A stretch of 64,000 nt of DNA from Catajapyx aquilonaris (taxonomy: Eukaryota), in contig KZ538338.1 in assembly GCA_000934665.2 (NCBI GenBank), positions 1-64,000 on the forward strand, in the 5' to 3' direction. Under the pieces are notes generated by a model. That model searched no databases, was not told where the DNA came from, and saw nothing but the letters and a program-made list of their open reading frames with translations. The position numbers and the translations under genes were made by a program. Below are positions 5,455 through 64,000 of this stretch, piece by piece. The first letter of the stretch is position 1; every line of letters starts with the position of its first letter.

Positions 5455-6552
5455 GTTACATCACAGACAAGACACACATGTCGCCTTTTTCGTACGTAAC
5501 ATGTAGGTGCCCGCTTTGCCAAGGCCCGGTGCTACTATACGGGGATTATTATGGTCCCTTCTTTGCCCCGGGCGGGGAAATCTCGCCAAGCAGCAGCTGC
5601 CATACATACAACCCCCCCTGCTAAGAGGTGATTATGTGCCGCTTGGCCAGTGGGTCTGTGCTGCTGCCGCCGTTGCTGCCGCTGCTGCAAAAAGAGTGAC
5701 GTAACGATCCGCCCTGACCTCATCTGATTCCATTGCACTTGTCCTCCCCGACCACACCTACAGGCCTCATTGTCCCACTTTGTTACCAATGAGTACATGT
5801 CATGTATAGGTGGGAGAGCGCCTCCTTTCCCCAACCTGATACCTCCCATCAGCACCCTACGGCGGCCAAAAAAATATATATATATTGTGTTCCTACATGC
5901 GATAAGTAAGCGCCAATTCTTCCTGCAGGCCAATTCAGTAGTCACTCAATTACTATGTGATAGCTGAATTTCAGCCATTGTTTTCTACGCCTCCTGTCAT
6001 GCACATAAGAGCAGGCTCTATAGGAATGTGTATTGTATAGATGAGTCATTTAATCCGTCGCACGAAAGAAATGCCGAAATGTATTGCACCATCAGCACTT
6101 ATTAGCTCTCGATATAAGCACCTGTAGTGCTGTAAGAGGGATTCAAAAGGTTCGTCCAAGTTTCCTACATTACGATGACAGTGACCACGTAGATCGAGGC
6201 CAAACATGTTTGTTGTGTTATACCGTCAACATTATGATTTTATACTCCCAAAAGATGTGAACGACTGCATTACAACCCAATAAAAGAATAAATCTGAACA
6301 AGTTTAGCTATAAAAATGAAACCTCCGATTTCATTACTGCGACTTCCTGTCCTCGAGCCGCCGTGACACAATTAGCTGGAACAGAATCCGTGGTGACTCA
6401 AACGGCGGGAAGTCATGGGGGCCAAAGAGTATGATACCGGGCGACGAGAGAAAGAGAAGCGATGGAGCCCCGGGGCCAAGGCTGGGTGGAGGCTCTTGCG
6501 GACCGCCAGCAAGGTCGGCATCGAAAGTGAAAGGAACCGGGAATCGCCCTGG

Positions 6553-6559
6553 TATAAAA
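6553..6559 (+). promoter_or_regulatory. TATA box of cuticular protein gene 1
   Basis: TATAAAA about 100 nt upstream of the ATG at 6655. AATAAA at 7469-7474 closes the transcription unit. Confidence 0.7.
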
Positions 6560-6654
6560 TGAGCCCCTCGTTCTGCAAAACCCTCCAGAAACGAATCCCA
6601 TCCAGAAGACCGCACATATTCTGCAGATCCATCCTCCAGTTCCCAACAACAACA

Positions 6655-7338
6655 ATGGCCCTCCGATTCGCCATCCTGGCCCTGGCCCTGGGTCTCGCCA
6701 ACGCGGGTCACGTCGCGTACAGTGCCCCTGGTCTGACCTACAACTACGCTGTGGCCGACCCAGCCATCGGGGCCTCCGCCAGCCAGACCCTGAGGAGCTT
6801 CGGAGGACTGGGCTCCGTCACCCACCAGCACAAGGCTCTGGACAGCGCCTTCAGCAGTGTCAGGAAGAGCGACGTTAGGGTGACCAACGACGCCGTCGGT
6901 CTCGCCCCTGCCTTCGCCGCACCCGCCTACCACGCCGCACCTGCTGCCTACCACCATGCCGCCGCCGCCCCTGCCTTCCACCATGCTGCCCCTGCCTTCC
7001 ATCACGCTGCCCCTGCTTACCATGCAGCCCCTGCTTACCATCATGCAGCACCTGCTTACCACGCAGGACCAGTGGCCGCCCCAGCCGTCGCAGCCCCTGC
7101 CTACCACACCGCCCTGCCAGCCATCGCCCGTGCCCCATACCCAGCAGCTCACGGCCACTTCGCTGCCCCCATCGCCGCCCCCATCGCCAAGGCATATGCC
7201 GCCCCTGCTCTGGCTGCCCCCATTGCCAAGGCATACGCCCCTGCTGCTTATGCAGCACCCGCCGCCGTGCACTTCTCCCCCGCCGTTGCTGTTGCCAAAG
7301 CTTCTTTTGCTGCCCCAGGATACGCTTATGGGTGGTAG
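6655..7338 (+). CDS. CPF-family cuticular protein, 227 aa, CDS without intron
   Basis: The true start is the ATG at 6655, not 6415. Signal peptide MALRFAILALALGLANA, CPF-type motif ASQTLRSFGGLG..KALDSAFSSVRKSDVRVTND, AAP(A/V) and HHAAPAY repeats, CPF/CPFL-type C-terminus SFAAPGYAYGW. Confidence 0.9.
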   Translation: MALRFAILALALGLANAGHVAYSAPGLTYNYAVADPAIGASASQTLRSFGGLGSVTHQHKALDSAFSSVRKSDVRVTNDAVGLAPAFAAPAYHAAPAAYHHAAAAPAFHHAAPAFHHAAPAYHAAPAYHHAAPAYHAGPVAAPAVAAPAYHTALPAIARAPYPAAHGHFAAPIAAPIAKAYAAPALAAPIAKAYAPAAYAAPAAVHFSPAVAVAKASFAAPGYAYGW

Positions 7339-8203
7339 ACACCCTGCACTGATCAACAGACTCTGAAATTCTGCACACCAACAATTCTTCGCGCTCTTAT
7401 TTATTTTCCCATTGTTTCGTGCTCAACTTGTTTATGCGAGAAATGCGAAAAGTGTACATATCAATCTGAATAAAAACAGATGCTCACAGATTGCACCTTT
7501 TTATTGCCCATTCTGTTATCTTTGCAGTGGGACTGTCCTTTTTAGGGTGCTAATTCAACTACACTTCATTGGCAAAAAGAAGAAAAAAAAACGGCAATCA
7601 AACCTGTTTGTGAGTTGCAAAGTTGATGACCCCAATACACTGCCCACCTTATACAATTACTGATAGATCACAATATGCTAATCAGGGTGTGGTCTCATGT
7701 ATGTTGCGCAACTAGTACGTAACTTGCTTTCAAGTTGAATCAGGATTGCTCGCTGTAAAATCCTGAACTGCTGACATAACCTCCACAAGGTATGTTATTA
7801 TATTGTCTCAAGGTCCGCTATTACCATAGGAATTGGCAAAGTGCATGGAGAAGTGAGTAATATCACGAGAAGAAGAAGGAATGGATGAAATTCTGCATTT
7901 TAACAGCAGGGGTGGATAAAGGTCAAGAACTTAACGGTAGAGGTCAATTTTTCTTCCAAATGAAGTGTCTTACTTGTTTCCCTGCAAGCTGTGATGGGTG
8001 CATACAGAAAGAAGTGAAAGTTCAGTACTTAAGTCGGCACATAAACTGAAATATTACCAACTTGAACACTGACATGATGCAAAAAAATTTGGGTGAAAAT
8101 GCTGGCTGAACAAGACAGCTATCTTTATTTATATTTAACGAGCAGTTGGTGGCAATAGCAAATAATAAATAAGTTGCAACGACACAATCCTCCGGCACTC
8201 TTC

Positions 8204-9050
8204 TTACCACCCGTAGGCATAACCAGGGGCGGCAAAGGTGGTGTGAGCGACAGCGGCAGCTGGGGAGAATCCAATGGCAGCAGGGGCGGCAATAGCCCTG
8301 GCTCCAAGACCATAGGCACCAGCATAACCATGTCCAGCATAACCATGAGCCAGACCATGTCCAGCATAACCATGGGCCAGACCATGACCAGCAAAACCAC
8401 GAGCAAGACCGAAACCATGGCCAGCGAAACCATGACCAGCATAACCATGGCCAGCATAACCATGAGCCAGGGCAGGGGCAGCATAACCATGGGCCAGAGC
8501 AGGGGCAGCATAGGCAGCAATTCCGACAGCATCGTTGGTAACACGGACATCGCTCTTCCTGACACTGCTGAAGGCAGAGTCAAGGGCCTTGTGCTGGTGG
8601 GCTACGGAGCCCAGGCCACCAGGAGTGCGCAAGACATTGGAGGCTGAGGCACCAATTGCAGGGTCAGCCACCAGGGCAGGGGCAGCATAGCTGTAGGTCA
8701 GGCCAGGGGCGGTGTAAGAGATCCCACCAGCGCTGGCATAAGCAACCAGGCACAGAAGAAGGAGAGCCTGAAAAAGCGGAGTGATTACTGAGTGTGAAAT
8801 AAACCTGGGCTTTGGTGATGTAAGACAAACATGAAACAATACACAAGTCTCAATCATGCCTCATTGCAAGTGAGACATAAGTCCTATTATTGTGCTACTG
8901 ACAGTACAAAATTGAAAGAGGGTTTCTAGAAAGTGTACTTTAGAGCATAATGTGGTGTTTTAAACAGACCAAAATAATTTTAAGAATGACTTATATGTTT
9001 TTAAAAAAAGAACTGAATAAGCAGGTGGGTTAACTGCAACTTACCTGCAT
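8204..9050 (-). CDS. CPF-family cuticular protein, 189 aa, 2 exons
   Basis: Exon 1 codes only ATG CAG (9050-9045, donor GTAAGT). Exon 2 is 8767-8204 (acceptor TTTTCAG). Signal peptide MQALLLLCLVAYASA, same CPF motif, GHG(Y/F/L)A repeats, ends TFAAPGYAYGW. AATAAA on the minus strand at 8129-8124. Confidence 0.9.
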
Positions 9051-20737: not shown

Positions 20738-21276
20738 AAAATAATCCCTCAACCTAAGGTGTAAAAGACAAGTCCTGTTGGATACTTACTGCAAACGTTC
20801 CCATTGCATTTTTCTGTTCAAGTTTTCCTCAAGGTCTGTGAATATGAGCACCAAAAATTGTGCCAATGCACAAAAGATGATGAAAACTCATTGACATTTT
20901 GTTACCATGTGCAATTTTTTGTGCTGGTGGATACAGGCCTTAAGGTGTACAGATTTCATTGATCATGTTGTTGAGTTCCCACAAACTGCTGCTGTTTCTC
21001 AAGGCATTCTGCCCACTTTTTAAAGACACTTCTAAATGTTTGATGGAGGAGTAATAAAAAATGTCATAGTTAAAGGTTTACTGCGCAGATGTGTTGCACT
21101 CTATTTTGTCATAATTCATTCATTGTGGTTTCAATTACAAGGTTACGTTATGTCTGGTATAATTCTTTCATTAAGTTCAACCCAGCAGTTATTTGTGTTC
21201 ATACAACCATCCTCAGGCTGGGTTGCACCACTTCTGACCCGTTGTTATGCAATAATGGGTCAACCCACTAAAAATG

Positions 21277-21336
21277 TCAAAATTGAGCGAAGCCCAGGAA
21301 CATAGGTATATGTTCCTGGGCTTCGCTCAATTTTGA
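21277..21336. repeat. perfect 28-bp inverted repeat with 4-nt loop
   Basis: TCAAAATTGAGCGAAGCCCAGGAACATA-ggta-TATGTTCCTGGGCTTCGCTCAATTTTGA. Confidence 0.9.
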
Positions 21337-21581
21337 ACGATCCTACTTAATTCGGTTAAAATCACGCTGGTGAAACCTGCATATTTCTGCCATAAATGAC
21401 AGAAAAGAACACTGAATTAATTTCACAGGTATGACCTTCAAAGCCATTTTTCTCAACCCTTCTCATGTGGGTTGGCTCATTATTGCATAACATCCAATTA
21501 TGCTTCTGAATTATACGACTTGTACATAATTGGTGATTTTTGTGCTACTGTCAGTGATGCTAGTAAGGCTTGACATGAACC

Positions 21582-21770
21582 CCCGCGAGCATAAAGATGG
21601 AGACGGCAGGCCCTTTTTTGACCTTTCTTTATCAGACTCTAATTAATGACTCTCTTTGGAACGAGTTAGCTGCTTCAGGCGTGTGTTTGTGTATTTATGC
21701 CAGTATATTTGATACTGTAATAGCCGAGATTGGCAGAGCAGCCTGCCGTCTCCATCTTTATGCTCGCGGG
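21582..21770. mobile_element. MITE with 29-bp perfect TIRs
   Basis: CCCGCGAGCATAAAGATGGAGACGGCAGG ... CCTGCCGTCTCCATCTTTATGCTCGCGGG. Confidence 0.75.
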
Positions 21771-22561
21771 TGTACCTTCTTGCTTGAAAGATGGGTGTCA
21801 AATCCTCCAAAGACAGGAAGAAAAATGGGAGAAGTGGAAGGGCTTCTCCACTGCATAATGGAGGTTCTGCAAGGTCGTTTCAATTTGGTATCGTGAGAGG
21901 AAGAAAAAACTCAACAGCTTGCAATTAACACTGGTGTGGCCTGTGGAGTTCAGCCCCTCAAATCGCCTATGTCAAATTACATATGCCAGATCACCAGACA
22001 CAAGTACCATTGCTGTGTTGAGCGCTTCATTGCCAGCCTAGAAATAGAACCAATGCAGAGATAGTAGTCTGTGCACAGGAACCCAAACTGCCTTGTAGTT
22101 CGGCCTGAGGGACAGTCTCGAAAGGGCCATTTCCACAAGGCATAGATTTTGTTGTGGTACATGATAAAAGACACCAACACATACGTACCTCAATTACCAC
22201 CATTAGAAATGAAGGAACACGATTAAAGCCAGACATTTTTAATTTCCAGCTGCAGTCTGCCAAACAGGCTTCCCCATTATTTAAAAAGGGGAGTTTGGCA
22301 TCATGGGCTTAACTTGTTAACACTTTTCTGGACCCTCCCCCCATTCATCGTCACTGGTAAAAATTAATTTGGAATGACTGCTCATTTCACAGTACACATT
22401 CTCTCTCTTACACTTTTGGGTCCTCACTTTTTTGGCCAACCTGCCACACTCACTCGATGACACTTGGAAGGAGAACGAGGGGGAGGTCAGGAATTGTGGA
22501 GAGAGATTGTAGTGTTCACTGCACTGATCTGGGTTGGATTCAAGTCTTTTGAGTCTTTAAT

Positions 22562-25500
22562 TTATCCCGACAGGTCGTTGTGATCAAAGAGAGCTTGGTC
22601 ATAGATCTCTGCCCGAACTAGTCGTCCACCAAAATAACGTCCGTTTAGGGCATCTCTCGCTTTTTCTGCTTCTGAAAATGGAACCAAATATAAATATTTT
22701 ATACATATTTTGCGACTAGTTCATTTTTCCACTGCAGCAATTTAAAGAACCTAGGTGCAAACCTACTGTTCACATGGGGGACATTAATCCACACTTAACT
22801 TTCAAATTATTATTTTTCAAAATAAGGGGAGACGGAGTGGCGCCGCGGTAACGTGCGCGCCCACGGATGTTAAGGTCCCGGGTTCGATCCCAACCCGGGG
22901 ACACCCCCTTCATCTCGTGCAGAGTTCAGGGTCACCTCTGGCTTCGTCTCGGGTGGTATTTCCTACAGACTAAACCACCCGGGGGAGTTCACTAAAAATG
23001 GCCACCACGTCAGTCGCACTGCACCTTGCACATCCCCTCCTGTCATCCTGCCCGTGGGCCCGGGCGCTTCGTTCAAGGCTCCAAATGTACGAATTGAAAA
23101 TAAAGGTCCGTGCAAAACACCTTCTGGGTGAGCACTACCCCAACAATTATTATTATTAAAATTAATTATTTTTCAAAATAATTTTTGAGAAATATCAAAA
23201 TTTCACATGAGCCCAATGCCTTTGTGACAACTTCTTCCAGATCCAACTAATGAGACACACGGTATAACCTAACAAAGCACACGAGACCATGTCAGGACTC
23301 TTATTACATTGAGTTACTGCCAGACATCTGTTGCAACCTGTGGTAATGGACCACAACTCATACCTGCACCAGCAGTAAACTCCACGAAGATTTTGACCAC
23401 AACATCGGCATCTGCATCCTCTGATTGCCTCTCCTGGTAGATGATGACCCTATTGACTCCTCCAAACTTGGAGCACTCATCAGTGATCTCCTCTTGCAGA
23501 GATTCATCCACATCTTCAGGGCCCACCATGTTCCTTAGGATCACTACCCGGCTATCACTCTTCCTCATCAACTTCTGCATTACTAAATGCCTTGCTGACT
23601 GGCCTTTGATGCTCATGTTCTCTTGCTGTTGAAGAGTCTGTGGCTCTGCATCCTCCATCAGTTTCTTTTGTAGCTCCTCCTGCTGCTTCTGTGCCTGCTC
23701 TCGAACCTTACAGAGAAAGACACTGGCATCAGATCCTCCATCTTTGACATACTTCTTGCATCAGCATGAGATCTTACCTTCCTGAGAGCCTCCTGCTGCG
23801 GGGTTCCTCCAAGGGCAACCATACTTTCAGCTGCAGCCACTTCTTCTGCCAGGACAACTGACGCTAGTGATGCTGGGGCAACAACCGACACAGGTGGTGC
23901 AACCACCACACCAGATTGTCCTACAACAGGTGCCACTAATCCTGGTGGGGGGATTGGTGCCAATTCGGCTGCCGTCACATTAGGTGGTGACCCCAGGGAA
24001 CCTGTTGGTGAGCCCTGCGATTGTGACGTCCCAAGTTTTGTCAACCCTAAGGCAACAGCATTTGAGGCTACAGCGTCAATGGCCTGTATCTTGGCAGTAA
24101 CAGCAGCAGCGGCAACCGCTGCTGCAGTGGGCATCTGGCTCTGGGCTGTCGCAGGGTTGTCCTTTCGCACCTGGAGCGCGTTTGGAGGGGTGATAGCTTT
24201 ACCAACACGCAGGTATTGACCTCCAAGGTCAAACAGATTCATAGAGGCAATGGCATCTTGTGCTGCCTGCGCAGTCTCGTACTCAATGAAACCGTAGCCT
24301 TTGTGCTTGGACGGAGATGATCCAGCAGCAAGCTTGCAAGACTTGATGCGACCAAATGCCTCGAACACACTGCAAGGTACGACAGAAATGGGGAAGGTGG
24401 GCGGTACTTTCAGTTGTATCTCTAACGTACGCTAAATTATGGTAAACTTCTATCAGTAGAGCTACAGATCTGCCCATGAGTAAGGCTATTGGTGCAATAC
24501 CCGATCTAAAAACATCATGACATACCGTCAAATGGGGTGACGTTGGCCGGTGGGGTGAACTTGGCCACAATTCCAAAAATGCAATTAATAGTTAATATTT
24601 CAGGTAACACGTGTTATAAAAATGAGACTTTCAATCACGTGATGCCATTACGGCAGTGCTTAGCTTGCTGTAGACCAAAAAAATTCACCTGTGCCGACAT
24701 AGGTGAGCAAGGAAATAAAATTAATGTTAAAGGTCATAAGTTTTCTAAGTATTACAAACAAAAATATAACTCATAAAGGTAATCAATAATCGAGAATTTT
24801 AATTACTAATCATCTTCGGAACATGAAGGTGCAGCCACTATTTCCTGCGTTAAAATTCAAGCACCTATATCTTAAAAATCTGAAGAAATATTTGATCAGG
24901 TTTGAACTTGTATCGTTAGCTGGGACTCTACTGAAGCATGCTTGACTACTGCCAGCTCTTTAGTAGCAGAAGAACCTGTGCAAAACAATTAAAATGTAAC
25001 AACTGCACAGGTGTCCCCTATAAGGGACACTTGGCATATCTGGGTTAAGAATGGTTGGAAAAGCAATGTTGCTCAGTTGGACACCTGTCTATCTTGGAAG
25101 TTGGACACTTGTCCCCCTCTTAAGTTGGACACGTGCTACAGCAGTACAATTTTCACATTTACTCTACAATCTACATGTACTCCCATTTTTTTCTAAAACC
25201 TGAGCCATGCTGAGCTCGTCATACATAATTTGTATTCCTATGTAGCATTGTGCATGGAAAAAATATTTTTCTACTCGCCTTATTGGCCAGCCTTGTCCAA
25301 CGCCTACTTAAAAAATTTCACAGTTGTGGGTTAATATCCCGCTACTTATATCTTCGCAAAACTGAAATTTTGGACCAAGTTCACCCCATTTGACAGAAGT
25401 CAAAAGTTAAATAAGGGCAGTTCAGATATATCACATTAATTCAGTACTGCACTTATTGTCGTGGTGGGATGCACCCTTGCAAAATGTGACCCTGAATGCA

Positions 25501-28500
25501 GAAATCATACTAAGGGTTCCACTTAAAACATGAAATTGAAATTATAATCCAAGAGTTACACTGTGCAGTATGATACAAATAGATGCAAGCCACATTAAAG
25601 ATAGCATAGGAGAGAGAGGCCATAAGAACAAGCTGCAGGATGTGCGACTTCCCCTTGCCATTACTTGCCTATCCCTCCCACACAATTCTTATCATATGTG
25701 CTTACTTATCCTTCATCTAGATTGCTCAATCGAAATGGTCAAGCAGATGGTGAAAATGAATATGGGTCATACCACGTGAAATCATCCCGAGGTGTGCTCA
25801 TGAATTTTAGATTTCCGAAATATTTTGCAGGGAGATAGACCTATCCCTAAACTCTAGATTTACCAACTCCCTGCAAAATATTTTGGAAATCTAAAATTCC
25901 TGAGCACACCTCGTGATTATTTCACGTGGAATGATCCATATGCCTCTACCACAGAGATTGCAAGCTTGCAAATGTTGGTTTAGGTAAAACTCATTTAGAG
26001 AAGAAAATTATGACCTCAAACTATTATGAAACTACCATAAAATCTTCTTGACCTCTTTTCTACATCTGAAATTAATAAAATGAATGCATTGCTTCATCAT
26101 GAGCATGTATTATCAGATTTAAGGTTTATGATAGGCTTTCAATTTTAATTTATAGCTTCTCGTAGCAGATGCAGAATTTTTCCATAGTAATAGCGCTCCC
26201 CATGCTTCTCCTGAAGTGTCACACTCCCTATTTCATGCAATGAAATAGTGCAGGAAAGGTAAAGACAGAAACATTTCAGGTGTTAAGATATCCCAATAGT
26301 TATAGTCAGTCACATGATCATCATCAAGCTAATCTCCATAGTTGCTCCTCAGATCATATGCTGCTTGTTTGCCAAAGCTGTATTTATAATGGAGGCCAAT
26401 GGGGGAAAAAATTATTCATTTTTAATGTAACACTAAGCTATTAAAGGTAATAATACAATGGTGCACTGTCAGGTGAAAGGAAGCATTTTCAGAAGAAAAA
26501 ACATAAAAAGTTAACTCCTTCAATTACAAAAATTATATTCAAACTGTCATCGGTACCACTGCTCTAACTTCTAAACTACTTGTATCTGAAAAGAATTCCA
26601 CTAACATCTCATGCTCAAAGAAATACATGGATTGGGCCCAAAGGTAGCCTTCAAATATAATACAAACCCATTGCAATGCACAGAGAGTTCTTGGTAGCGT
26701 ATCACTAATGAAGTGTTAGCACAACAGCTTTGAATATTAAAATTTTGAATCCCTATCTGATTTTCAACAGTCACAAGTACCAGTGTACCATCAAGGATAG
26801 TTTAAAGAAATACTTGCCTGATTTGAGGATGGGGAAAATTATGTTAATGGCGGATCCAACATGAGGTGAAAATGAATGGATACGTCAGGATAGAATGTAG
26901 CAATGTACTGGCAATCAAAAAAATTAATGAGCACAAAGAAACTGCCGACCTCTTGATGTCGTCCTCGGTGAGGTCAAGGTGAATGGAAGCCACGTAGATT
27001 CGGTTGAAGTGGGGAAGTACGTTTTTGTCAAGTCTACTGACAAGGATAATGAGAGAAGCAAAATAAAAATCCCGACGAGGTTGGAGGGGCAGCAGGGAAG
27101 AAAAAGGATGGGACATATTACAAGGTTAAGGAAAAAGAGACACTTCCACCCCATCATTTTTAAAATCGCAGCTTACCTCTTGATGTCATCCTCGGTGAGG
27201 TCTGGATGTATGGAAGCCACGTAGATTCGGTTGTACTGCTTGGCCTCCTCGGTGATCTCATCAATCACGGACTGCGCCTGGGGCATGTTGGAAGGGCGGC
27301 CAACCTGCAAGGTAGGGCAAAGCGGAAGGAGATGGTCAGACCTGCCGCCTCCGCCCCCTCCCACCCAAATTCCCCCCACAACTTGATCGGTCTCGGACTC
27401 TTGCTGCCATCTTTCCACACCTGACCCAACCCCACTTAAATAATACCTCAAATTCACTTTACTTACTCGCCTCTACACTCATCAGCCCAAATTGGTGCAA
27501 GTCGTGTGTAAGACCTTTCACAACAGATTCAACACAGGCTACTAAAAGGAACGGCACATACGTGAGAATAGTGAGTGCGCCCTGCTTAATCATAATTTCC
27601 CACCAATTTCAACCACCACCCACTGCAAATTAGGCAAGTACAAGATGAGTCGCTTCTAGACAGGCAGTCTCGCATCAGCATTTTAATAAAAATCATCCAC
27701 TGCCATTCTAAAACACAACTCTGAGTTATGCTTCAAAAATTAAGAAAGCTGCTATTAACAGCTCACTATGCAAATGAAAAATTCCAGAATTCAAGCATTG
27801 CAGATGTTAATGGACAAATAGTATAATAAGGTTCAATCAAAAGCAGAGTATACTGAATGTACAATATTTCCATTGATTTGTGAAAATGGTAATCAAGACA
27901 CTTCATTGGTAAAATTTAGGTAAAATATAAGACAAAACTGATAGAACCTGTTTGTAATTGCAATCCTTGTACTCAAATGTTGCAGCAAAGGTAACTAGCA
28001 CGTACTCTTGACTCATCCTGTACATTTGCTTCCCAAAACTTTTTTCTTTTTGCCCAGTGTATCATCACTATTCCAGCCCTCACAAAATTCCAGCAACCCA
28101 ACACAAAATAATTACAGGTTGTATGTTACACAGTATAGGAATAGTAATAGCATAGACAATTAAAAAATTGGTACTTGTTACGTATATGTAATAATAATAA
28201 TAAACAAATAAATTAGAAGCGGAACAATCCAAGTTGGGCCGAGACTTATCTTTTTGAGCGCAAAGGAATTTGGTAAGAAGCCGAGGCTCTTCTCCCGAAT
28301 TTCCCCCGAATCAAGTGTGGGCGCAGAAAGTAAGTCATTTTGCACTTACTGTCACGACGTGGGGCATCTGAACCTACCATGATAAAGCAAACATGACATT
28401 ACATTCGCGGGCTGCTCGGTACGGGGCCACATTCATTCATGATCGTGATGCCCGTTACTCTCAGCACCCATTTTTAAAATTCTCCTTTTTAGCGCCTCTT

Positions 28501-31500
28501 GCTCTCACTTGCTCTCTTCCCTTTTGCTTCTTACTCTTCTGAATTTAAAAAAACTGGAATTGAGGCGAAGAGCAAGATTATGCGGCCGTGCCGAGCAGCC
28601 TCTAAAAAGCAAAAGTGGGACGGATTTTTTTTTTCTCTCTCTCTCTCTCTCACTCTCTCGTGGAGCCCATGGCATGCACATGTTTTCTTAGCATCACCTT
28701 ATCATGTCTTCATATCCCCCACATATCCATAACAGGGCTTCAAGCACTTTTTAATTTTTGAGAAACACAAATAAAAAAACCAAATGAGAGGGGGATGAAA
28801 ACCATAATACGAGTTCTTACTTACCTTGTGCTGATCACTTGAGGCTTTCCCACATATAAACTCCAATGTGAGTTTTCCTGGGGTTACTTGTGACATACTT
28901 CCCTCCATACATTATTCCTTACAGAGACATTCCCCAATCCCTGTTCTCAGATATCTTTAATGCCCACCTACTCTCTCCTTTCTGCCTTTCAGCATGTAAG
29001 TAATGTAAAAGCAATGATGCAAAACCTGGAATGGTTCCTCAACAGTGACACCAGTCCTACCGTCCTGCGAAGATCATCCCTCTCCAGTAATGTAGCGTGG
29101 CACATTGATGGCACACTTTTCTCTGCAGTGAGCCAACCCTCACTGCATCCCACACCTTCCCTAGCCACTCCCTCCCACAAAAATAAAGGTAACCAAGCCC
29201 ACCTTGATGTTCCTTCCACCAATCATGACGCCATTCATCTGCTCCAGTGCCAGCTGCGCTGCCTCGGGGATCTCGTACTCCACGAATGCAAAGCCCTTGT
29301 GCTTCTGAGTCAGTGGGTCCCAGCTCATGTTGATGGACTTGATGGGGCCAAACGGCAAGAAAGCTTGCCTGATGGTGTCTTCTTTCAGCTCAAATGAAAT
29401 AGATCCAACGTACACTCTGCACATTAGCACCAGTGCCTGATGCCTCTGCAGACTCTTGGCTTGCTGTTGCTGGTGGGCTAGTGTCTGTTTCATCAGCACC
29501 ATCTTTATGCTCTGCTCCATTGCATACTTCTTTGCTTTTGTGACCCATTCCTGCTGTTCTGAGCTGAGTTTCCCTAACCCTTGACCCAACAGGCCACCAA
29601 CACTGCTGTCCTTCCTGGCACCAGGTCCACCCACCAAGGGGCCAGTCTGATCAATGTCATTGATCGCAGATGGCAGGAACTCATCCGGTGCCATCTCTGT
29701 GCATCGGGAAAACAAACACAAAAATTAATATGGCAGAGTAACGCAAGGCACGCACCCACACACACATTCATCCCGATGAATGCCGCCGGTTGTCTCTCTG
29801 AGGATTTAACTTTGTCCCACCCAGTAACTCGTACACAATTTGTACATAAATAATATTCAGTACATTCAAAAAGGCCCTGTCATGAACGTGCCTTAGGAGC
29901 CGGTGGCTTCTCCCTCCACTCTCCTCGACCAATTATGCAAAGTGTGAGCGTGGCCGATACCCTCTGGAAAGATACAAGTGGAAATGTTTTGGGGCAGGAG
30001 GGATTTCTCCCCTGGCTGTATCTGCAAGAAAAAAATAGGAAGACAGGAAGCAGCCCAACCCACTTTTCCCCCCGCTTTAGCCTCTAAAATTCATTTACAT
30101 GAAGTGAACTGGGAAATTCCAATTTCACTGTTACATGCAATGCACAATATTCTCTTTATTAAATTACCAGTAACATGCACTTCGGACAGAAAAGTTTTGC
30201 TTCTCTACTTCTTGGTACAATAGCTCCACAGTAATAATTAACTGAACAATCAATTAAAACAAGGTAACAAGATGTTAACATTACTAGGTCTAGTGTGCTG
30301 TCACGCATAAGAAAGTTTAATTACATATTTTGCTATGTTAAATGGCAGTGACATGGTTTAGAGGCTAAATGTGCATCCCATCCCCATATTCCTACACTTC
30401 CTCATCAACTATCCCCGCCCTACCCAGCATGAGGTGTATATCTCACAAGGGGAAGACCAACCGTGGCCAATATTGCCTGGTGGCTGGATGGCCTGCAGCT
30501 GCACCATGATACCTGCCAACACTTCCCCCATGCTCTGTAAAGATAACAGGAAGGGAGGAAAAAAAAAAAAAAAAAACGAAAAAGCAGCTGCAGAGCATTC
30601 TGGGACAACCTCAAATCGTAAAATGCATACGGAAAGAAGAAAAAATATCATGTCATATCAAACATTTCTTTCTGAGGCGAACACAACCATTCCTTCAGAC
30701 GCCTGCTGAACGAGCTTGGTCGTAACATTGGGCCCTATTTCATCATTTGGCGACACTTGCAGTACCAAAGTGATGCCTGCAAGGTGGGCAGAGAGAAGCG
30801 AAGATGAAAGGTACACGTCACCCCCCACCCACCTCCCCAATACTCATCTCATTCAACCAAAAACAATGCAAACATTCACTTCATCACATTCACACCAACT
30901 TACCCCTTGTACAACCAAAAAGTACTTGTTCCAACAATGCAACTATGTAATATGTAGCAGAATTTCGTATTGAATATTAAAAATTATACATGTCAAACAA
31001 TCAAGTTAACACTACCCTCACTTTAAGTCACTTTTATTATGAAGTACGTCAATCAAAGATATTCAATGAAGTCCACTGTTCACATCCCACTGAAGTATTA
31101 CGTCTAAGTAGTGATTGTCAATAAGCTGTCATGCTCAACAAAGTAGCAATAAAGAGTATAATAATAACAACCCAAACGTTTCTCAAGCCAATATTTTGGT
31201 ATGTGATCCACTTAACTGCAGGCACTCTCGCTAACTCTCTCACACATACATGCACATAAAGGAAAAGATCATTTTCCATTTGCCATTGCTTTGCATACTC
31301 ACCCTCAATCCGTGGCCTTTTCACCGCAACCTCCACTGCGCTACTTGTGGTTGATGTTGGCACCTGTACCTGGTTTGATCCCTGGAGCACAAAAAAATAA
31401 ATCGTAAATTACTGACATCAGTGCTTGATGGAAAGAATAAATGATGGCAGTTGTCACCCTCTCCGCATTACTTTGTCGGCTTTGACCTACTACAATGCTC

Positions 31501-33267
31501 ATCTCTTTGGTGATGCTAGACTCTAGCGAACAGGTGAGGCCAATCTGGAAAACCACTGCCATCTTGACTTTTGTTGAGAAAGAGGTACAGCCATTGCTTC
31601 AAACCAGAGCAGGGTAAAATCATGGCAAAAGTGCTTTCTGGTGGCTCTTGAGGTACACTAAATCAGCCTGAAGGATGTTAGCTGACCGCACTGTGGCAGT
31701 AGGCTACCAACTGGCCTTGTAGTTAGACAGCAGGCGCATGCCTTGCCAGGACTGCATTTCTCACAGTCGCAAATAACAAACAGAGGAGAGTTCTGGGATC
31801 AATTTTCACAGGCAAGTCAAGAGCAAATGAATGCTCAGATTTTTCCCATGTCACCAATAGGGTAGGCTGAATAATAAATGGTAAATGCAAAGCAAACGGT
31901 TGATTGAGTCAGCGAGTGCTTGTAGCAATAATATTTCATGCAGTAAACAAGGATGAACCAGTTGTCCTTAAATTGCTCTCCATTACGGCAACAATCCTCT
32001 TGCTAATGCAACAACTAAGGTTGGGGAACACTGAACTCAGTAAATTTAATTAGGTCGGCCGAGTTTATTGGCTAGTTTTTGTTAATCCACGAGGATTTGT
32101 TTTACTTTATTTGTTTACAATGCTCCCATCCTTAAATCATTTAATAGGATACCTGGGTGCCAATAGGTATACTGATCTGAGGTACAAATCTTGCGTACAT
32201 GTTCATTGCCATATGGCTCAATCTTTGCCAAGTGTAATCCACTTATAGGCAGAGGTCATCTTATTGTCCACATGTCCTTGATTTTACCAGGATGACTGTT
32301 GTCAGTATTGGATGGTTGTGCTGCTAATGAGACGTATGATTGTTGATGTATATGGCCCTTTTGCAGGAGATAGTACCAACATACAGTTGCATCTCATGTA
32401 CCCAACAATAAATACGAGATTCGTGTTGTGCTTGACCCATGCCACATGTTCCAACTGTTTTTGCCATCATTTCCAGTAGGGAAATGGTCATATCATGGTT
32501 GCTCATTGCAAAATTACACGAAATGGAGGAAATACTATGGATCGAGGCTCTCTGCTCCGCACCCTCCCAATCCTCTTTTTCTCTGCCACCCTCAGGTCAG
32601 GCAGGATTAACCCTGGAACCCGGCCGTGGGGTCTTTTAGGACCCCAGAGGAATTAAAATGCATTAAAATGATCATTACAATGAACGTTTGCCATTTAAAT
32701 AAAGTATGTAACAGGAAGTGCATGTATATTTTGAATTAGCTATCATTTTAGGCATTGTTCAAAGAATAATTGCATATAGTCAATACATTGAAAAGTATTA
32801 CATAAAAATTAATAATTAATAAAAATTAAAATAAGGACGGGGTCCTAAAAGACCCCACGTCACGGTTCCAGGGTTAAGCACATTGTCGTACGCCTATCTA
32901 CTCCCACATTGGGAAGTGAGACCCTGTGATTTTCGAGCTGTTTCCGAATGTGACCCCAAAGATACACCTACGGGAAGCAGCGTCTCCCATGTCACTAATG
33001 AACCTCAATTTATCTGGGATCAATGGTTATCGGTCAACACTTGGGTGCAATTGCTGGATCCCCAATTGGTAGACCACCGAATCCTGACATGCATGTTGCT
33101 CCTGCAGCAAGTGAGAGCCACTGATGGAAAAGGCAGGGAGCTGTTCTTTTTTTCCCCCCATTGGGCTGACTACTATGCTACGGGTATATATGGGAAGAAG
33201 GCGATGTACTGACCATGGCAAAGGCGCTTCCGTTGACCATGGGCATGACCATTGTGGCCACGCTCAT
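22562..33267 (-). CDS. PUF60: poly(U)-binding splicing factor PUF60 / half pint, ~599 aa, 7 coding exons
   Basis: Exons 33267-33214, 31381-31303, 29696-29203, 27304-27177, 24369-23778, 23706-23364, 22671-22562, all GT-AG with matching phases (1800 nt). Hallmarks [15 protein letters not shown]1 [19 protein letters not shown]2 [20 protein letters not shown] domain [21 protein letters not shown]. The first two exons are less certain. Confidence 0.95.
22826..23164 (+). mobile_element. tRNA-derived SINE family A, copy 1
   Basis: A box TGGCGCCGCGG, B box GGTTCGATCCC, (ATT)n tail, 17-bp TSD ATTATTTTTCAAAATAA (22809-22825 and 23165-23181). Second copy at 43844-44266. Confidence 0.9.
24525..25396. 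mobile_element. pogo/Tc1-like non-autonomous DNA transposon
   Basis: CCGTCAAATGGGGTGA.. / ..TCACCCCATTTGACAG termini with a repeated subterminal GGGGTGAACTTGG. Preceded by TA. Confidence 0.65.
25764..25937. mobile_element. MITE with ~70-bp TIRs and ATAT TSD (Sola-like)
   Basis: GGGTCATACCACGTGAAAT.. / ..ATTTCACGTGGAATGATCC, flanked by ATAT on both sides. Confidence 0.75.
26950..27036 (-). other. candidate 87-nt cassette exon of PUF60 duplicating the start of RRM2
   Basis: Polypyrimidine tract and CAG acceptor, phase 2-2, no stop codon. Encodes [28 protein letters not shown]. Donor AG|GTCGGC. Confidence 0.6.
32611..32873. mobile_element. piggyBac-like MITE, copy 2
   Basis: TTAA TSD and CCCTGGAACC termini. 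The interior is the reverse complement of 16987-17262. Confidence 0.85.
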
Positions 33268-35095: not shown

Positions 35096-50208
<15,113 letters not shown>

Positions 50209-51315
50209 GGCTAGGTGCTGATGAGTTACTGTCACCTGTCCTTCTTAAAAATTATTCGACCGGTGGCCTGAGCTGGTCATGTCTTTGCCAGTAATCTGAA
50301 ATGCTGAGAATAACACACATTCACACAATGGTTACACTTCAATGCCATACTTGACAAACCATTATCAGAGAGAGAAAAGTAAAATATCACTTCCTTGCCT
50401 CATAAATTCATTCCAAGGTTTCTCACCCTGTTATTGGCTTACTGTTCACATATTCCAAGCCAACATTAGCACCAACAAAGAGCTTCTCCCATAAGCTTCC
50501 TTATTATGGCCACTGGGATAACAAAGTAGCCCCTCATTTCACACGTCCTTTGCATTATGCAGGAGTGTCAAAACATATCTTTATTCCTAACTACTGCATG
50601 TAACATTATTGGTAGACCAAGGAGAGAAGAGCCTAACAATATTGCTTGCAACATTGAAAATACACATCAAGCTGCTCACGCTTGTGCTGAATAAAGGCAA
50701 GACTTTTATCATCAACAACCCTGGGCACACCGAGCAGGCCCATTTTGATGTGCTACACTGCCCTTAAGGCTGAAATGAAAAGGCAGGTCATTAAGCAAAC
50801 ACTAGAATGGCTCCTTGGTCAGCCAGTGTAGCTGCAGTGATTTCTAAGCCTGGATATTTTATTGGCCATGAGAAGAAAGTTTGCAGATCATTTGTTAAGT
50901 CAATGGCAGTTGCATCAATGAATTCAACAGGAACCCTTCCTTCCTTTGTTGGATGAGTTACTGACCCTGGGTACACTCCCCTTGCTTGATGTATTAAACT
51001 AATGCAGGGGGTAGGACCCAATATTGAATCCCCATCTAATCAAGCTTGTGGCTCTGTCTACCACTCTACCTGGACTGAGCAATAATGTTCAAGCATAATA
51101 AATGGGATTAATACTTCAGGTGCTTCCTTCCTGTGCACATGAAACATTGGTGTTGCCTACATTCAAGGTTTAATAAATTGCAATTTATCTTGCCTACTGC
51201 TGCAAAATCGGGGCCTTCCTGTGATACCATTTATATTTGTACTAAGGTCATTTCAATCGTAGAAATATTCGAGACTGTAACGTAATAAAATTTTACACGG
51301 GTTTCATTCTATTAA

Positions 51316-55744: not shown

Positions 55745-58700
55745 TCACACACAAGTCTCCTTATTGGTCCAACCAGGAGATGCGTCTCCATCACCCCCAC
55801 CCCCACCTGCCACGACCCTTCCCCCTCCCCCCTTCCTCCGAGGTCTGTGGTGTTGTTGGTGACTGTGACCTCTGCGGTGACCTCTGTAGAGTTGTCCCCC
55901 GATTGGGGGTACGTCAGTCTCAGAAGCCCCATCTGACGCTGGGTGGTTGTGCCTGTGTTGATGGTGGTGGTGGTGACTGGGCGACTCTCCTTCAGAGTGA
56001 CGTTCTGAGCGAAGCCTCTGCTTCTCGAAAAACCGGCGAGCAATTCCTGATTGGTAAGGGTTGTAGAAGGACTCAGGGACGGACTCACAAGACAGATAGC
56101 CATTGCTAGCTTCCAGTAGTTGTGGCTGAGGAAGAGGAGCCTCTGATTTATCATCGTCTGCATCTGTAGTGGTGTGTGATGGCAATGCTGGTAATGGTGG
56201 TGCTTGCTTCTGTGGTGCTACAACTGGAAAAAATCAAGGATAAGCTATATTCATCCTTTCTAATGTCCTTGCAAAATATTTGCATTGTCAAAATATAATA
56301 ATTTGGTCTTATCTTACAATTCCTCTGCTAAACAATAACACTTACCCATCTCAACACCATCTGGAGTATCTGGCTGGGTGAGTAGTGTCCTGAATGTTTC
56401 ATCTCCACCCTCCTCCCTCCTGCCAGACCTTCCTCTGCACAGCCTGGACATTGCTTTCCTAATGTCCTTCCTCATGCAGCACCAGGCAGCCACCACCCAA
56501 CCTCCAAGAAATCCAGATGTTACGCAGAACACCACAGGGAACAAATCAGCTAAGTCACGCCATGACGGAACCAATAAAGCAGATGGACACACTGATGCCA
56601 CTCCACTCAGCCATGCTACCCAAAAAAGAACTGCTTGTATTTCAAGCGCCTTCAGGCACCATGTTGGGGTCTTGGTCATATCTGGTACTAAGCTTGAAGT
56701 GGATGAGCGCAAAGAGGTGCTGTCTGGACTCCACGTTGATCCTGAATTAAGCATTTTTTGAACATTTATGGCTCGATGTGCCAAACCTGCATGTAGGCAT
56801 GTCAACAGGCAAAGTATAGCTAATGGGAGCCACACAGCACCAGGCCACACTGATGGACGTAAGAAGCAGAAAGTTCCAGACGAGTACTCGGGTAAATGAA
56901 CAGCTCCAGTTAAGCCAACTGCCAACAATCCAGGTCCCCATCCAAGCAAGTAGAGCTGCACTAATCGTTGCATGCGTCCAGGTTTTGGTCCCAATCCAAT
57001 GTCATCTTCATCTGGTGTCACATTGCCAAGGCGCTTTCGGTTTTCGCGTGAAACTTTACCCTTCAAGCAGTGTATTGCAAGCAATATCCACAGCAGGCTA
57101 CATAATGTAAGGTAATGCAGAGCAAGACCTAACAGCCCGCAGGGTAAGCGCTGTTGTACTGGAACAGTCCCAAAGCAAAATGCAGTCTGAAGAACAGTAA
57201 TGGACAGCCATCCATTAATTAAGGCATGCCGTAAGCGTCTTGAGAGTCCAGATGATTTCCAAGCCCATATCTGGGTCAATATGGCTGTCACAAGCAACGT
57301 TGCACACATGGCACTTCCAACATATACACCTGGATGTAATACTACTGGCATTGCTGTCATGTTTGGTTTGCTAACCAAGACTGGTGCAAGCACAGTATAA
57401 TATCCAAGCTTCCAACATTGAAACTGTACACGAGTTGGTGCCACATCTATAAGCCTGCATCGGCTTTGCTCACCAGTCACCCAACCAGCATGTGAATCCC
57501 ATCTAGCAACTTCTTTGGCAGCACCATTAGTCCGCAGTGTCACCAATACGCCATCTTTGAGGTCCACATCAGCACCAGTGGAGCAGCCAACTACACCTGA
57601 TACACGATGAGTCCCATCTGGCAATCCCGGAAAGAGCGCACCATCTGCAAAAGCAGCCAGCACCAACTTGGCATCTTCTGGAATTAGTGCTGGAATGCGT
57701 TCTGGTGCAATTCGTTCCACAACATGTTCTAATACCACTCGATCTGAAACTTGTTCGGATGGAAGTCCTTTAGAAGAGAGTTCTTTGGAAATAGGCTCAG
57801 TAAGAACCTTAGCTAAATTGTGGCTTGGTACAACAGCTGGAACCCTTATCCATGCCTCAACTTGTTCATTAGCAGCCAATGACGGCACCCCTCTCAGCAT
57901 CTCGGAAGTACAGTGAAACAATCGATCTGGAACACGTGCTGGTGGAAGTGACAGCCAAACACATGAAACAGCCACCCCACCATTTACAACATCCAAAACC
58001 AGTTGGGATCCATGATGCTTAAAACTTGGTATAGCCTTTGCAACTATCTCAGCTGTAGAAATGAGTCGTGAACAAGCATTATCTTGAAGCTGTGCTTTCT
58101 TCAGATCCAACTCCATAACAGATGTTGACAGCTGCTCAAGCAGGTCTGTAATTGCAGCTGCAACTGCTTCCTCTTCTGGGCCACCACTGCCAGTGAGGGC
58201 AGTTGCCAGGCGTAAGCCTGCCCTTGATGCAAGAGCCAATTCTTCCCAACCATGCAAGTCACTGGATGCATCATGAAGCTGACGTGCAGCAGCACCAAGG
58301 AGACTGGGACTCACATGTCCAGGACTATGGAGGTTAAAAGATCAAAACAGTTAGTAAAACAACTGACATGATTCATGCGAAAGCAACAAGACAATGAAGT
58401 TATTGTCCTGAAATTACCTTTCAGTATGTGCCTGAGCCATCTGATGCAATAGCCTAGCTGTTTCCCTTTCATATGCGCAGTCCTCCATCATGGGTGCTTC
58501 CCAATTCCCCATTCCAGAACACTGTCTGGAAGCCCAGGATGGCTGTCCACCTCTCACGGAACTCTGTACTTGGCATGGAAGTTTTGCCTGAACTCCTCCA
58601 ACAACTTCAGGCCATTCATAGTGACCTCTGCCACCACTTGTACTGCTTCTCATGCAGTAAGGCACATCTGGGCTGAGCACCACTAGAGACACTTGTCGGC

Positions 58701-60424
58701 TGGTATTCCCACGACTTGAACTTGCGACACACATCCATTCACCACTGTGGCTGGAATCCAGCACACGTATGATCAAACTTGTCAGCGATTCATCTGAGTT
58801 TCTCTTGGCCTCAACTGTAACTTGACTCATCCCTGACACTTGCTCTAGTGGTGCTTCAGGTGATTTTCTCCATCCCCAAGTGACCCCAACATCATCTTCA
58901 GTTGACACTTTGCAGGAAATTCTTAAAGAGTCACCAGCAAATACAACTTGTGTTCCGGATGGCCGCAATTGGAACACTGGAAGCTGCAATGGCCAGCGAC
59001 AATGGAGTGTGTCTGATTGTAGGCGCTTCAGAGAAGTACCAGCTAAGGGCAGGGGCAGTTCACAGCGCCCTCGAGGAGAGAGCTCTCCACGTACCAACCA
59101 AGCAAGCTCACAGTCACATATCAAGGGGTTGTTGCTTAGATCTCTGTAATAAAATGCCACACCAACTGTGAATTTCTCATATTTGGTCCATCAATCGATA
59201 TGATTCTAGACATTCTTGAATGGACCTTGAGCGGCCACAAGGCACTTCAGGATTGAATGACCTCAGAGTGAACTCAACATGTTCTGTTCTACCATGTGCA
59301 CTACCCTTATGAGTAATGAAAAAGAAAACTTATATAATGGATTCTTGGTGATGGAAAATTCCACCACCAGTTAAAATGCAATTTCATTAATGAGAAAGGA
59401 AATAATTTCATATTAAGCTCACTTACAATGCTTGCAGGGCTACAAGTGGTGCAAACGTTGCCTCTTCCAAGCGGCTCAGACGATTGTGAGTCAATTTACT
59501 AAATGGGAAATAAATATTACTAATTGGAGAAAATACTGCAGAAATGTCCTAAAATTACTTACAGTCGTTGTAGATGTGTCAAGCCTGCCCAAGTCTGGTT
59601 GCTCAACACACTCAGGTGATTTCCAGAGAGGTCCCTGTCATATGCAATATTGTGTATTAGAGCAAATACTCATGCAATTGACTCATTACAACTTACAAGT
59701 GATGAAGGTTTCCCAATGCAGTCAAAGCACTACCTTCTATGTGACTCAGATTGTTGTTGGCCAAAACTCTGAAAAGATTACACATATAATTACCCTTTCT
59801 GCAATTGGAATATATGCATGTGATGCACTCACAATTTCTGTAACTTTGGCAGAAAATCCAGTTGGCCTTTCTTCAGTGTTGTTAGCTCATTGCCAGACAA
59901 ATCCCTGAAACAATTATTATTATTATTATCATCATCCATGTGATGTAGGTGACAAGACCCATCAGGACCAATGATTTGATACTATGAAAATTACTGTTAT
60001 GGCTAATTGTATAAATTGGAAAATGACATATTATGCATCTGCTTCATAAGAAGATTTTCCTCTCGATATGTGTTCAACAACTGGGCCTTAGTGAACCCAA
60101 ACCATCAGTATGTTACCATGCAAATATTTCATGCCTTTCTGCTACACCTTGGCACAAACATGAAATAACAACTTACAGAAGAATAGTGTCATTTGGGAAC
60201 TGAGTCTGGTTGAGCACTGCAATATCCTTCAGTGGTGAGATGTCTGGTGGGCACCTGACTCTCACTCCTGAGTCACCCCCACGAATTTTCACTGCAGAGC
60301 AGCCACACTGCTGTGGACACTGTGGAGATGAATACGCCTCCTGCTGGTCAGCCCACACTAGGGCCAGGAGGAGGAGAAGCAACCACCATGTGTAGTGGTG
60401 CAGGGCGGGAGTGGACCGGCTCAT
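55745..60424 (-). CDS. ADGRA3: adhesion GPCR subfamily A (ADGRA2/3, GPR124/125-like), ~1239 aa, 8 coding exons
   Basis: Exons 60424-60177 (signal peptide, LRRNT), four 72-nt phase-2 LRR exons (59904-59833, 59768-59697, 59634-59563, 59498-59427), 59143-58418 (LRRCT NPLICDC, Ig, HRM), 58324-56346 (GAIN, 7TM with LHYLTLCSLLW and YLLGWG), 56223-55745 ending in the PDZ ligand ETCV. Confidence 0.92.
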
Positions 60425-63410: not shown

Positions 63411-63763
63411 CTGCAAGAGAAATTGGTCTGATTATTCAAATATGCATGGTCCGGATCTGAAATCTGGTGCAACAGATCTGAGAACTGAACAAATGTTTTG
63501 GCCTGCAGTAGGCCACTGATCCTACTCAGGACCCCAGAAACCCTAAGCCCCAAAGCAAACACTCACAGTTCGGGCAACTCCTTTCTTTTATTCTTCCACG
63601 AGCTCAGCAAATACACGTCCGTCCCCTTGGTCTCTTCTTGGCTCTCCCTTATTCCCCGACGCCTCTGCTAGGCGGCTCCCCACGCGACCACCAACTGCCA
63701 CTTTTCAGGGGAGCCAACCCAGGGAGGACGCGGGCCACACAAACACAACCCCCCCCCCCCCCC

Positions 63764-63827
63764 NNNNNNNNNNNNNNNNNNNNNNNNNNNNNNNNNNNNN
63801 NNNNNNNNNNNNNNNNNNNNNNNNNNN
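63764..63827. other. assembly gap (N run)
   Basis: 64 Ns following a poly-C tract. Confidence 0.99.
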
Positions 63828-64000
63828 CTCAAATTTAACATATTCCCATGTACACAGACAAGAAAGAAGAAGAAAAAAAAAAAAATACAAAAAGGCAAAT
63901 ACAAAATACAAAAAAACTAAAATCCGCTTGTGAGACACTAGGGCAATGTAGTGCGAGGGGGGGGGGACAAACCAAAGGGGAAAAGGGGGGAGGGATCGAA

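Follow-up and report, generated by a model that had tools for sequence, protein, structure and literature searches.

A partially duplicated exon with a used splice acceptor in the PUF60/half pint gene of Catajapyx aquilonaris

We analyzed the first 64,000 nucleotides (nt) of contig KZ538338.1 from Catajapyx aquilonaris (assembly GCA_000934665.2; this whole stretch is hereafter called the window and is numbered along its forward strand), the minus strand of which carries a gene that we assign to arthropod PUF60/half pint (hfp). Our data show that the spliceosome truly uses an acceptor at position 27036 of this gene, which lies 140 nt downstream of exon 4 and opens an 87-nt segment (hereafter, the cassette) made up largely of a second copy of the end of that same exon. 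We consider it probable that the cassette is a young, truly spliced, in-frame, and lineage-specific alternative exon, the inclusion of which would yield a PUF60 protein with a long linker between its first two RNA-binding domains (RRM1 and RRM2) and with RRM2 formed from the second copy. An original prediction made from this DNA had proposed such an exon, and its interpretation is partly supported by the current analysis, namely with respect to the acceptor, the genuineness of the duplicate, and the plausibility of rebuilding RRM2.

Acceptor use and the duplicated segment

The locus is represented in a single public sequencing run, X1, which is of unrecorded kind and contains 0.41 of the words; no run recorded as RNA contains it. 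We used X1 in the form of Logan contigs, which were mapped onto positions 21000-33000. These contigs skip the introns of the gene with GT..AG borders (22671>23364, 23704>23776, 27302>29201, and 29696>31303), and the long records display no letters that differ from those of the window; they are therefore derived from RNA, the source being this genome or one almost identical to it. In one contig, 27177 is linked to 27036 (140 nt skipped; CT..AC when read along the plus strand; side 29, both 2), and since this joint has canonical GT..AG borders on the coding strand, the CAG acceptor of the cassette is used in RNA. The sequence after the 140-nt intron reads ...CCTTGTCAG/TAG/ACT... (slashes denote actual or possible splice borders), and 87 nt further on it reads CAAGAG/GTCGGC. 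The cassette both enters and leaves in phase 2, i.e., the phase needed by exon 5, and contains no in-frame stop. Thus, the coordinates and properties that had been predicted for it (a 140-nt intron, a length of 87 nt, phase 2-2, freedom from stops, a tandem CAG/TAG acceptor, and a GT donor) all hold.

The X1 contig depths were 15.2 for the contig that runs from exon 4 into the cassette, 24.7 for that of exons 2-4, and 71.5 for that of exons 5-7, with bin mean depths of 2.56 (26614-27014) and 2.32 (26213-26613) over the neighboring stretch; contig depth cannot rank the parts of a gene, and we drew no inclusion level from these values, nor was the low intron cover used as evidence.

Repeat searching and local alignment revealed how the two copies are related (Table 1). 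The repeat as a whole spans 64 nt at 89% identity, and the best local alignment covers 59 nt at 92% identity, with a score of 93 compared to a shuffle mean of 12.6 (0 of 500 shuffles reached it). The longest identical run shared by the copies is 24 nt, and the final 11 nt are common to exon 4 and the cassette. By comparison, the first 25 nt of the cassette are new sequence with no counterpart in exon 4, and the homology ends sharply at the donor, through its GT. The near-copy had been estimated at ~56 nt; it is indeed a near-copy, though one of 59-64 nt that reaches two codons further upstream (adding the residue changes Q>H and Y>F) and includes the GT. The sequences that flank the copies exhibit no excess similarity, given that 346, 400, and 70 of 500 shuffles scored as high in local alignment, and the remainder of the region is not repeated elsewhere in the 64-kb window. 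We also considered a tandem duplication of 227 bp with decayed intron parts and rejected it since the flanks retain no similarity, although the original unit may have been larger. Among inverted repeats able to pair with the cassette, there was only a 16-nt match (26920-26935 with 25793-25808), and an Rfam scan of 21000-33000 gave 0 matches.

Short near-identical repeats can arise by assembly error, and the cassette could in principle result from a stretch having been collapsed or duplicated, with no counterpart in the actual genome. We find this scarcely credible, as exon 4 is connected through canonical splice sites with the unique 5' part of the cassette in an independent RNA contig, the copies differ at 7 sites, and their flanks are unrelated. 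The earlier claim that the second copy is no assembly duplicate is borne out by that contig in particular.

Taken as a whole, the arrangement suggests that ~64 nt, comprising the last 20 codons of exon 4 and the GT of its donor, may have been copied 227 nt downstream into the next intron, where the copy would have landed downstream of a CAG acceptor preceded by a pyrimidine tract of exceptional length. The 100 nt upstream of the acceptor are 78% pyrimidine (46 T and 32 C), a value that lies in the top 0.01% of 100-nt windows on the minus strand of the 64 kb and that represents the maximum within the gene. In addition, the AG-free zone of the cassette acceptor extends over 104 nt, compared with zones of 0-95 nt at the gene's five other acceptors. 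Branch-like pentamers supply three candidate branch adenosines, at 27126, 27064, and 27050 (i.e., 90, 28, and 14 nt from the exon), the most distant of them within TTAAC. The acceptor itself is a tandem one (ccttgtCAG/TAG/act), and its alternative TAG would begin the cassette at 27033. With respect to the donor consensus CAG/GTAAGT, the cassette donor (GAG/GTCGGC) displays 5 of 9 matches, which equals the constitutive donor of the RRM1 exon, and the donor of exon 4 (CAAGAG/GTAAGC) displays 7 of 9.

According to the accessible part of a study of human PUF60 (PMC6093180), exons activated by PUF60 have U-rich upstream sequences, longer AG exclusion zones, and distant branch sites, and depletion of PUF60 leads to loss of PUF60's own exon 5; as far as the accessible text of that study and of a preprint (bioRxiv 10.64898/2026.05.17.725788) goes, PUF60 affects the splicing of its own transcript. 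The same sequence hallmarks are found at the cassette, namely a U-rich upstream region, a long AG exclusion zone, and a distant branch-site candidate. Because of these hallmarks, we suspect that inclusion of the cassette may respond to the level of PUF60 itself, a speculative suggestion that makes autoregulation a lead only.

Three other classes of splicing element were considered for the cassette and rejected. A recursive splice site (or RS exon) does not apply, as the spliced junction CAAGAG/TAGACT regenerates no GT. Mutually exclusive tandem exons do not match either, with only 59-64 of 128 nt being homologous and the lengths differing (87 vs 128 nt). Were the segment used in exchange for exon 4, it would open in phase 0 with TAG or, from the second acceptor, with ACT TGA. 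Finally, it does not qualify as a poison exon, since its inclusion would add neither a stop nor a frameshift (87 nt, in frame).

Coding constraint, predicted protein, and competing explanations

Over the 60 coding nt of the duplicated segment, the copies differ at 7 positions, 5 of which are third and 2 of which are second codon positions. Of the codons affected, 3 are changed synonymously and 3 encode a different residue (Q>H, Y>F, and P>L), so that the earlier statement that all differences other than P>L are synonymous applies inside the 56 nt and fails over the full coding length. All three residue changes fall on variable columns: in a table of orthologues built from 117 of 120 arthropod homologues (the remaining 3 were dropped for lacking the motif pattern), H occurs 26 times, F 3 times, and L once; regarding the residues of exon 4, Y occurs in 114 and P in 36. 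Columns that are invariant in all 117 orthologues are unchanged in the copy. Only 21 of the 142 possible single-nucleotide replacements are "allowed" by the orthologue sets, and random substitutions kept all residues within those sets in 3-4 of 10,000 trials when 7 were introduced and in 1.1% of trials when 4 were introduced. This substitution pattern speaks for a preserved coding capacity of the copy, as judged from a tiny sample in which L and F are seldom seen and no polarity can be assigned to the synonymous differences. The state common among insects (Q/H-Y...P) is the one found in exon 4, which places the residue changes on the branch of the copy. The opposite polarity, whereby the copy would represent the ancestral state (homologue P0001 shares its F and L), was rejected on the basis of the 117-orthologue table, which shows exon 4 with the usual insect state.

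To place the duplicated piece within the protein, we relied on homologue P0028, for which the best PDB matches are human PUF60 RRM1-2 structures (3UWT, 2KXF/2KXH, 2QFJ, and 5KW1, among others). Its AlphaFold2 model, obtained from a 58-sequence alignment (predicted local distance difference test, pLDDT, of 92-95 over the region concerned), comprises a linker helix (residues 160-173) and two elements of RRM2, strand beta1 (178-182) and helix alpha1 (190-200), with the border between exons 4 and 5 after K194, inside alpha1. Exon 4 covers the linker between RRM1 and RRM2 and continues through beta1 into alpha1, the first half of which it encodes. According to this model, the duplicated piece comprises beta1, the loop after it, and, of the 11 residues of alpha1, the first 5. 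The original prediction had described the duplication as covering the first strand and helix of RRM2, which applies to the strand and, for the helix, to those first 5 residues only.

We propose the following course of events for the cassette as an in-frame exon. First, in the step seen in RNA, the 140-nt mini-intron is spliced out, so that the cassette directly follows exon 4; the copy's own donor would next be joined to exon 5, adding 29 residues in frame. RRM2 would then fold from the second copy, which is contiguous with exon 5, and the first copy together with 11 new residues would become part of the RRM1-RRM2 linker. The linker, which has 24 residues (24-25 being usual in arthropod homologues), would roughly double in length, and the spacing and coupling of the two RRMs would be expected to change. 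Rebuilding of RRM2 from the second copy, as originally predicted, appears plausible, with all 20 of its residues lying within the states of the 117 orthologues.

Longer linkers between RRM1 and RRM2 seem to be tolerated, because 16 of the 120 arthropod homologues have linkers of 31-72 residues, with insertions at two other positions. These insertions in PUF60/hfp are 7-48 residues long, in frame, and unrelated in sequence. They occur after NIKV in Hymenoptera (about 21-22 residues), a damselfly, and beetles, and inside NMPQ/AQ in decapods (27 residues); the proteins in question include P0007, P0012-14, P0023, P0046, P0061, P0063, and P0108-P0119, among others, and some are unreviewed gene models. 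Lengthening of the RRM1-RRM2 linker by alternative splicing therefore seems to be a recurrent theme in arthropods, to which the cassette would add a new route.

A more far-reaching possibility, which we regard as quite unlikely, is that the splice-controlled internal duplication acts as a fold switch, in which two segments that each hold beta1 and the start of alpha1 would compete with one another. PUF60 would set the isoform level through the extreme pyrimidine tract and would thereby autoregulate at the protein level without nonsense-mediated decay. The isoform could take up either a form with the long linker or one that is strand-swapped or dimerising, in which poly(U) binding or the docking of partners is altered.

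Several points weigh against the view of the cassette as an in-frame alternative exon. On the side of RNA, the support consists of one contig from one run of unrecorded kind. Of the joints that the original prediction called for, 27177>27036 was recovered in that contig, while 26950>24369 (from the cassette donor) and 27177>24369 (skipping) are absent among the X1 joints listed; the contig of exon 5 (record 1) stops at 24371. In-frame inclusion and alternative status are thus only what we infer. We treat the missing joints as uninformative because exon 4 and the cassette have their final 11 nt in common, so that contigs spanning either junction would reach only ~19 nt into exon 5 and would probably show as loose ends. 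The Logan contigs were, we assume, built from a k=31 graph, and because all identical runs are shorter than 31 nt, the two copies should not merge in assembly.

The lack of a listed joint between the cassette and exon 5 also fits unproductive splicing, in which the acceptor would be used and the weak GTCGGC donor would not. The intron would then be kept, with a stop 39 codons past the cassette, and the transcript would be degraded or would give a truncated protein, in either case serving as a down-regulating decoy. The donor indeed has C at +3 and G at +4, and autoregulation of this kind is common among splicing factors, as illustrated by the RBM39 poison exon in the accessible part of PMC10477243. 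We nonetheless deem this improbable, as the cassette preserves the frame and is free of stops, which a decoy would not need, its donor equals a constitutive one of the same gene, and its coding residues are preserved. Moreover, the missing joints have a technical explanation in the 11 nt that end both upstream exons.

Further adverse points come from the homologues. None of the 120 best arthropod homologues contains a second NRIYVAS motif or an insert before VFEAFG. In 117 of them, there is one motif and a gap of zero between ...IK-S and VFEAFG, such that the skipping form is their sole form, and 3 are without the pattern; this set includes RNA-supported multi-isoform annotations from damselflies, a cockroach, locusts, and decapods. 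Similarly, the unique part of the cassette was found in no protein of two very large collections. A 40-residue query gave no candidate in the "near" search and 1 match among 3 candidates in the "longer" search (P0001, an ordinary PUF60), and against 1.84 billion representatives it gave 1 match (P0121, an ordinary fragment whose two stretches correspond to RRM1 and RRM2). As far as can be told from these searches, the cassette is unannotated and lineage-specific. As for the constraint on the copy, the excess of third-position differences is marginal by itself (P = 0.036-0.064; the lower value refers to 5 or more of the 7 lying at third positions), which leaves the hint of selection that had been drawn from synonymous divergence marginal when taken alone (p about 0.04). 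In addition, exon 4, itself under selection, may be where some of the 7 differences arose. Lastly, a hydrophobic orphan beta1 in the linker could simply be harmful, and this exposed extra segment may also destabilise the protein.

Neutral exonisation has to be weighed at this point. It posits that copied exonic enhancers of exon 4 and a copied donor came to lie beside a chance pyrimidine tract, the resulting exon being spliced in at some level, having no selected function, and being tolerated or mildly harmful. Absence of the cassette from 120 of 120 homologues and the merely marginal third-position excess are in line with it, the copies are only about 11% diverged and may be young, and 29 codons are stop-free by chance in ~25% of cases, (61/64)^29. 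However, every residue change is compatible with the orthologues (P about 4e-4 to 1e-2), no other pyrimidine tract on the minus strand of the 64 kb is as extreme, and the homology stops exactly at the exon border, with unrelated flanks. On balance, we judge neutral exonisation to be somewhat unlikely and favor the in-frame alternative exon described above.

Gene layout and other features of the window

We assign the gene to PUF60/hfp because a tblastn search with P0001, a homologue of 561 residues, recovered colinear exons on the minus strand (residues 14-561 covered) and because of the 80-86% identity of the protein encoded by the RRM1 exon. More specifically, this protein is 86% identical to the proteins labeled "poly(U)-binding-splicing factor half pint" in Ischnura and Hetaerina, both damselflies, and 80-83% identical to decapod, orthopteran, and cockroach proteins, and its search produced 1793 matches at E<=1e-20. 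As judged by sequence, the gene product has two N-terminal RRMs and a C-terminal UHM-type RRM. The protein collections searched consist of cluster representatives only, and the species from which the window comes is not among them (best identity, 86%). The label "exon 4" follows the numbering of the original prediction, which could not be confirmed; the upstream exons seen are the RRM1 exon and one that ends at 31303.

Table 1. Coordinates of the PUF60/hfp exons, the cassette, and the associated sequence features in the window
Feature	Position	Strand	Basis
RRM1 exon	29696..29203	-	tblastn of P0001
Exon 4 (128 nt, phase 0 to 2)	27304..27177	-	translation, tblastn, RNA joint 27302/27304>29201/29203
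Source copy (end of exon 4 and GT of its donor)	27175..27238	-	repeat search, local alignment
Intron between exon 4 and cassette (140 nt, GT..AG, removed in RNA)	27176..27037	-	RNA contig joint
Pyrimidine tract and AG-free zone before cassette acceptor	27039..27138	-	composition count, 100 nt
Cassette exon (87 nt; 29 codons, counting the split codon)	27036..26950	-	translation; acceptor used in RNA
Second copy (including GT of its own donor)	26948..27011	-	repeat search, local alignment
Cassette donor GTCGGC	26944..26949	-	consensus count
Intron downstream of cassette (2580 nt; inverted repeat with 75-nt arms and other repeats)	24370..26949	-	
Exon 5 (remainder of helix alpha1 and RRM2, then Ala/Pro-rich linker)	24369..23778	-	translation, tblastn
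Exon 6	23706..23364	-	tblastn of P0001
Last exon	22671 to stop near 22565	-	tblastn of P0001

The intron downstream of the cassette hosts an inverted repeat (25760-25834 and 25867-25941) whose arms are 92% complementary and lie 32 nt apart, and which resembles a hairpin element of the type of a miniature inverted-repeat transposable element. The same intron includes, at 24522-25386, a set of non-canonical RNA-contig joints (24719>25321, 24765>24999, and 25386>24522, the last of which "goes back 865"). These adjoin short inverted repeats (24527-24546 with 25375-25394) and probably reflect repeats or copies elsewhere, not splicing. Between exon 6 and the last exon, the minus strand displays a GC-rich stretch at 22840-22960 with a motif like the T-arm of a tRNA, which may be a repeat resembling a short interspersed element; ARAGORN found no tRNA in this stretch, and no Rfam family was assigned to it. 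The X1 bin at 22604-23004 has a summed depth of 5543, with up to 11 contigs and numerous variant letters, which points to an expressed repeat present in multiple copies.

Elsewhere in the window, and as read from the open-frame listing alone, minus-strand frames at about 38000-50250 resemble a STE20/SLK-type kinase (an N-terminal kinase motif and long, coiled-coil-like Glu/Arg-rich exons), a leucine-rich-repeat-like protein appears at about 56300-59200, and Gly/Ala-rich cuticle-like proteins appear at about 6300-8900. A run of 65 N (an assembly gap) lies near the end of the window, at about 63670-63830.

Relation to known systems

Mutually exclusive tandem exons, such as U2AF1 3/Ab and OGDH 4a/4b, likewise consist of a local coding duplicate that is alternatively spliced, and U2AF1 is, as stated in the accessible part of PMC5224494, likewise a gene of the 3' splice-site machinery. 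Which exon of such a pair is chosen depends on long pyrimidine tracts and unusual branch points, going by the accessible parts of PMC5224494 and PMC7969005. In contrast, only the last 20 codons have been copied here, and they would be added and not substituted, which gives an internal repeat in place of a swapped segment. The linker-insertion isoforms of arthropod PUF60/hfp (16 of 120) share with the cassette an in-frame lengthening of the RRM1-RRM2 linker; the cassette differs from them in that it sits inside helix alpha1 of RRM2, a position that would be workable only as a repeat of beta1 and the start of alpha1.

In FLT3 internal tandem duplications (FLT3-ITD) and in engineered "alternate frame folding," a segment occurs twice in tandem, and the two copies can compete for one structural position. 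The repeat described here would instead be added conditionally, by splicing in a normal genome, and involves neither somatic mutation nor design. Human PUF60 exons 2 and 5 encode parts N-terminal to RRM1 and are not known to be duplicates or to touch an RRM. Like the cassette, they are in-frame alternative exons (FIR/PUF60 isoforms), and exon 5 depends on the PUF60 level according to the accessible part of PMC6093180. We found no description of a duplicated-segment exon in PUF60/hfp in the literature searched. Alternative splicing derived from duplication is itself already known, and what is new is that it is here additive and domain-internal.

Exon duplication normally yields substitution isoforms, whereas the partial duplicate reported here would yield an additive exon, one that is foldable only because the piece of the domain that it interrupts is repeated. 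The host gene encodes a core 3' splice-site factor in which RRM spacing matters for RNA recognition, and the cassette thus offers a natural test of linker length and of a redundant beta-strand in a tandem RRM protein. If neutral, it would still show neatly how exonisation can be driven by the copying of a donor together with exonic signals. If functional, it would represent the birth, caught in the act, of a domain-internal alternative exon that does not break the domain.

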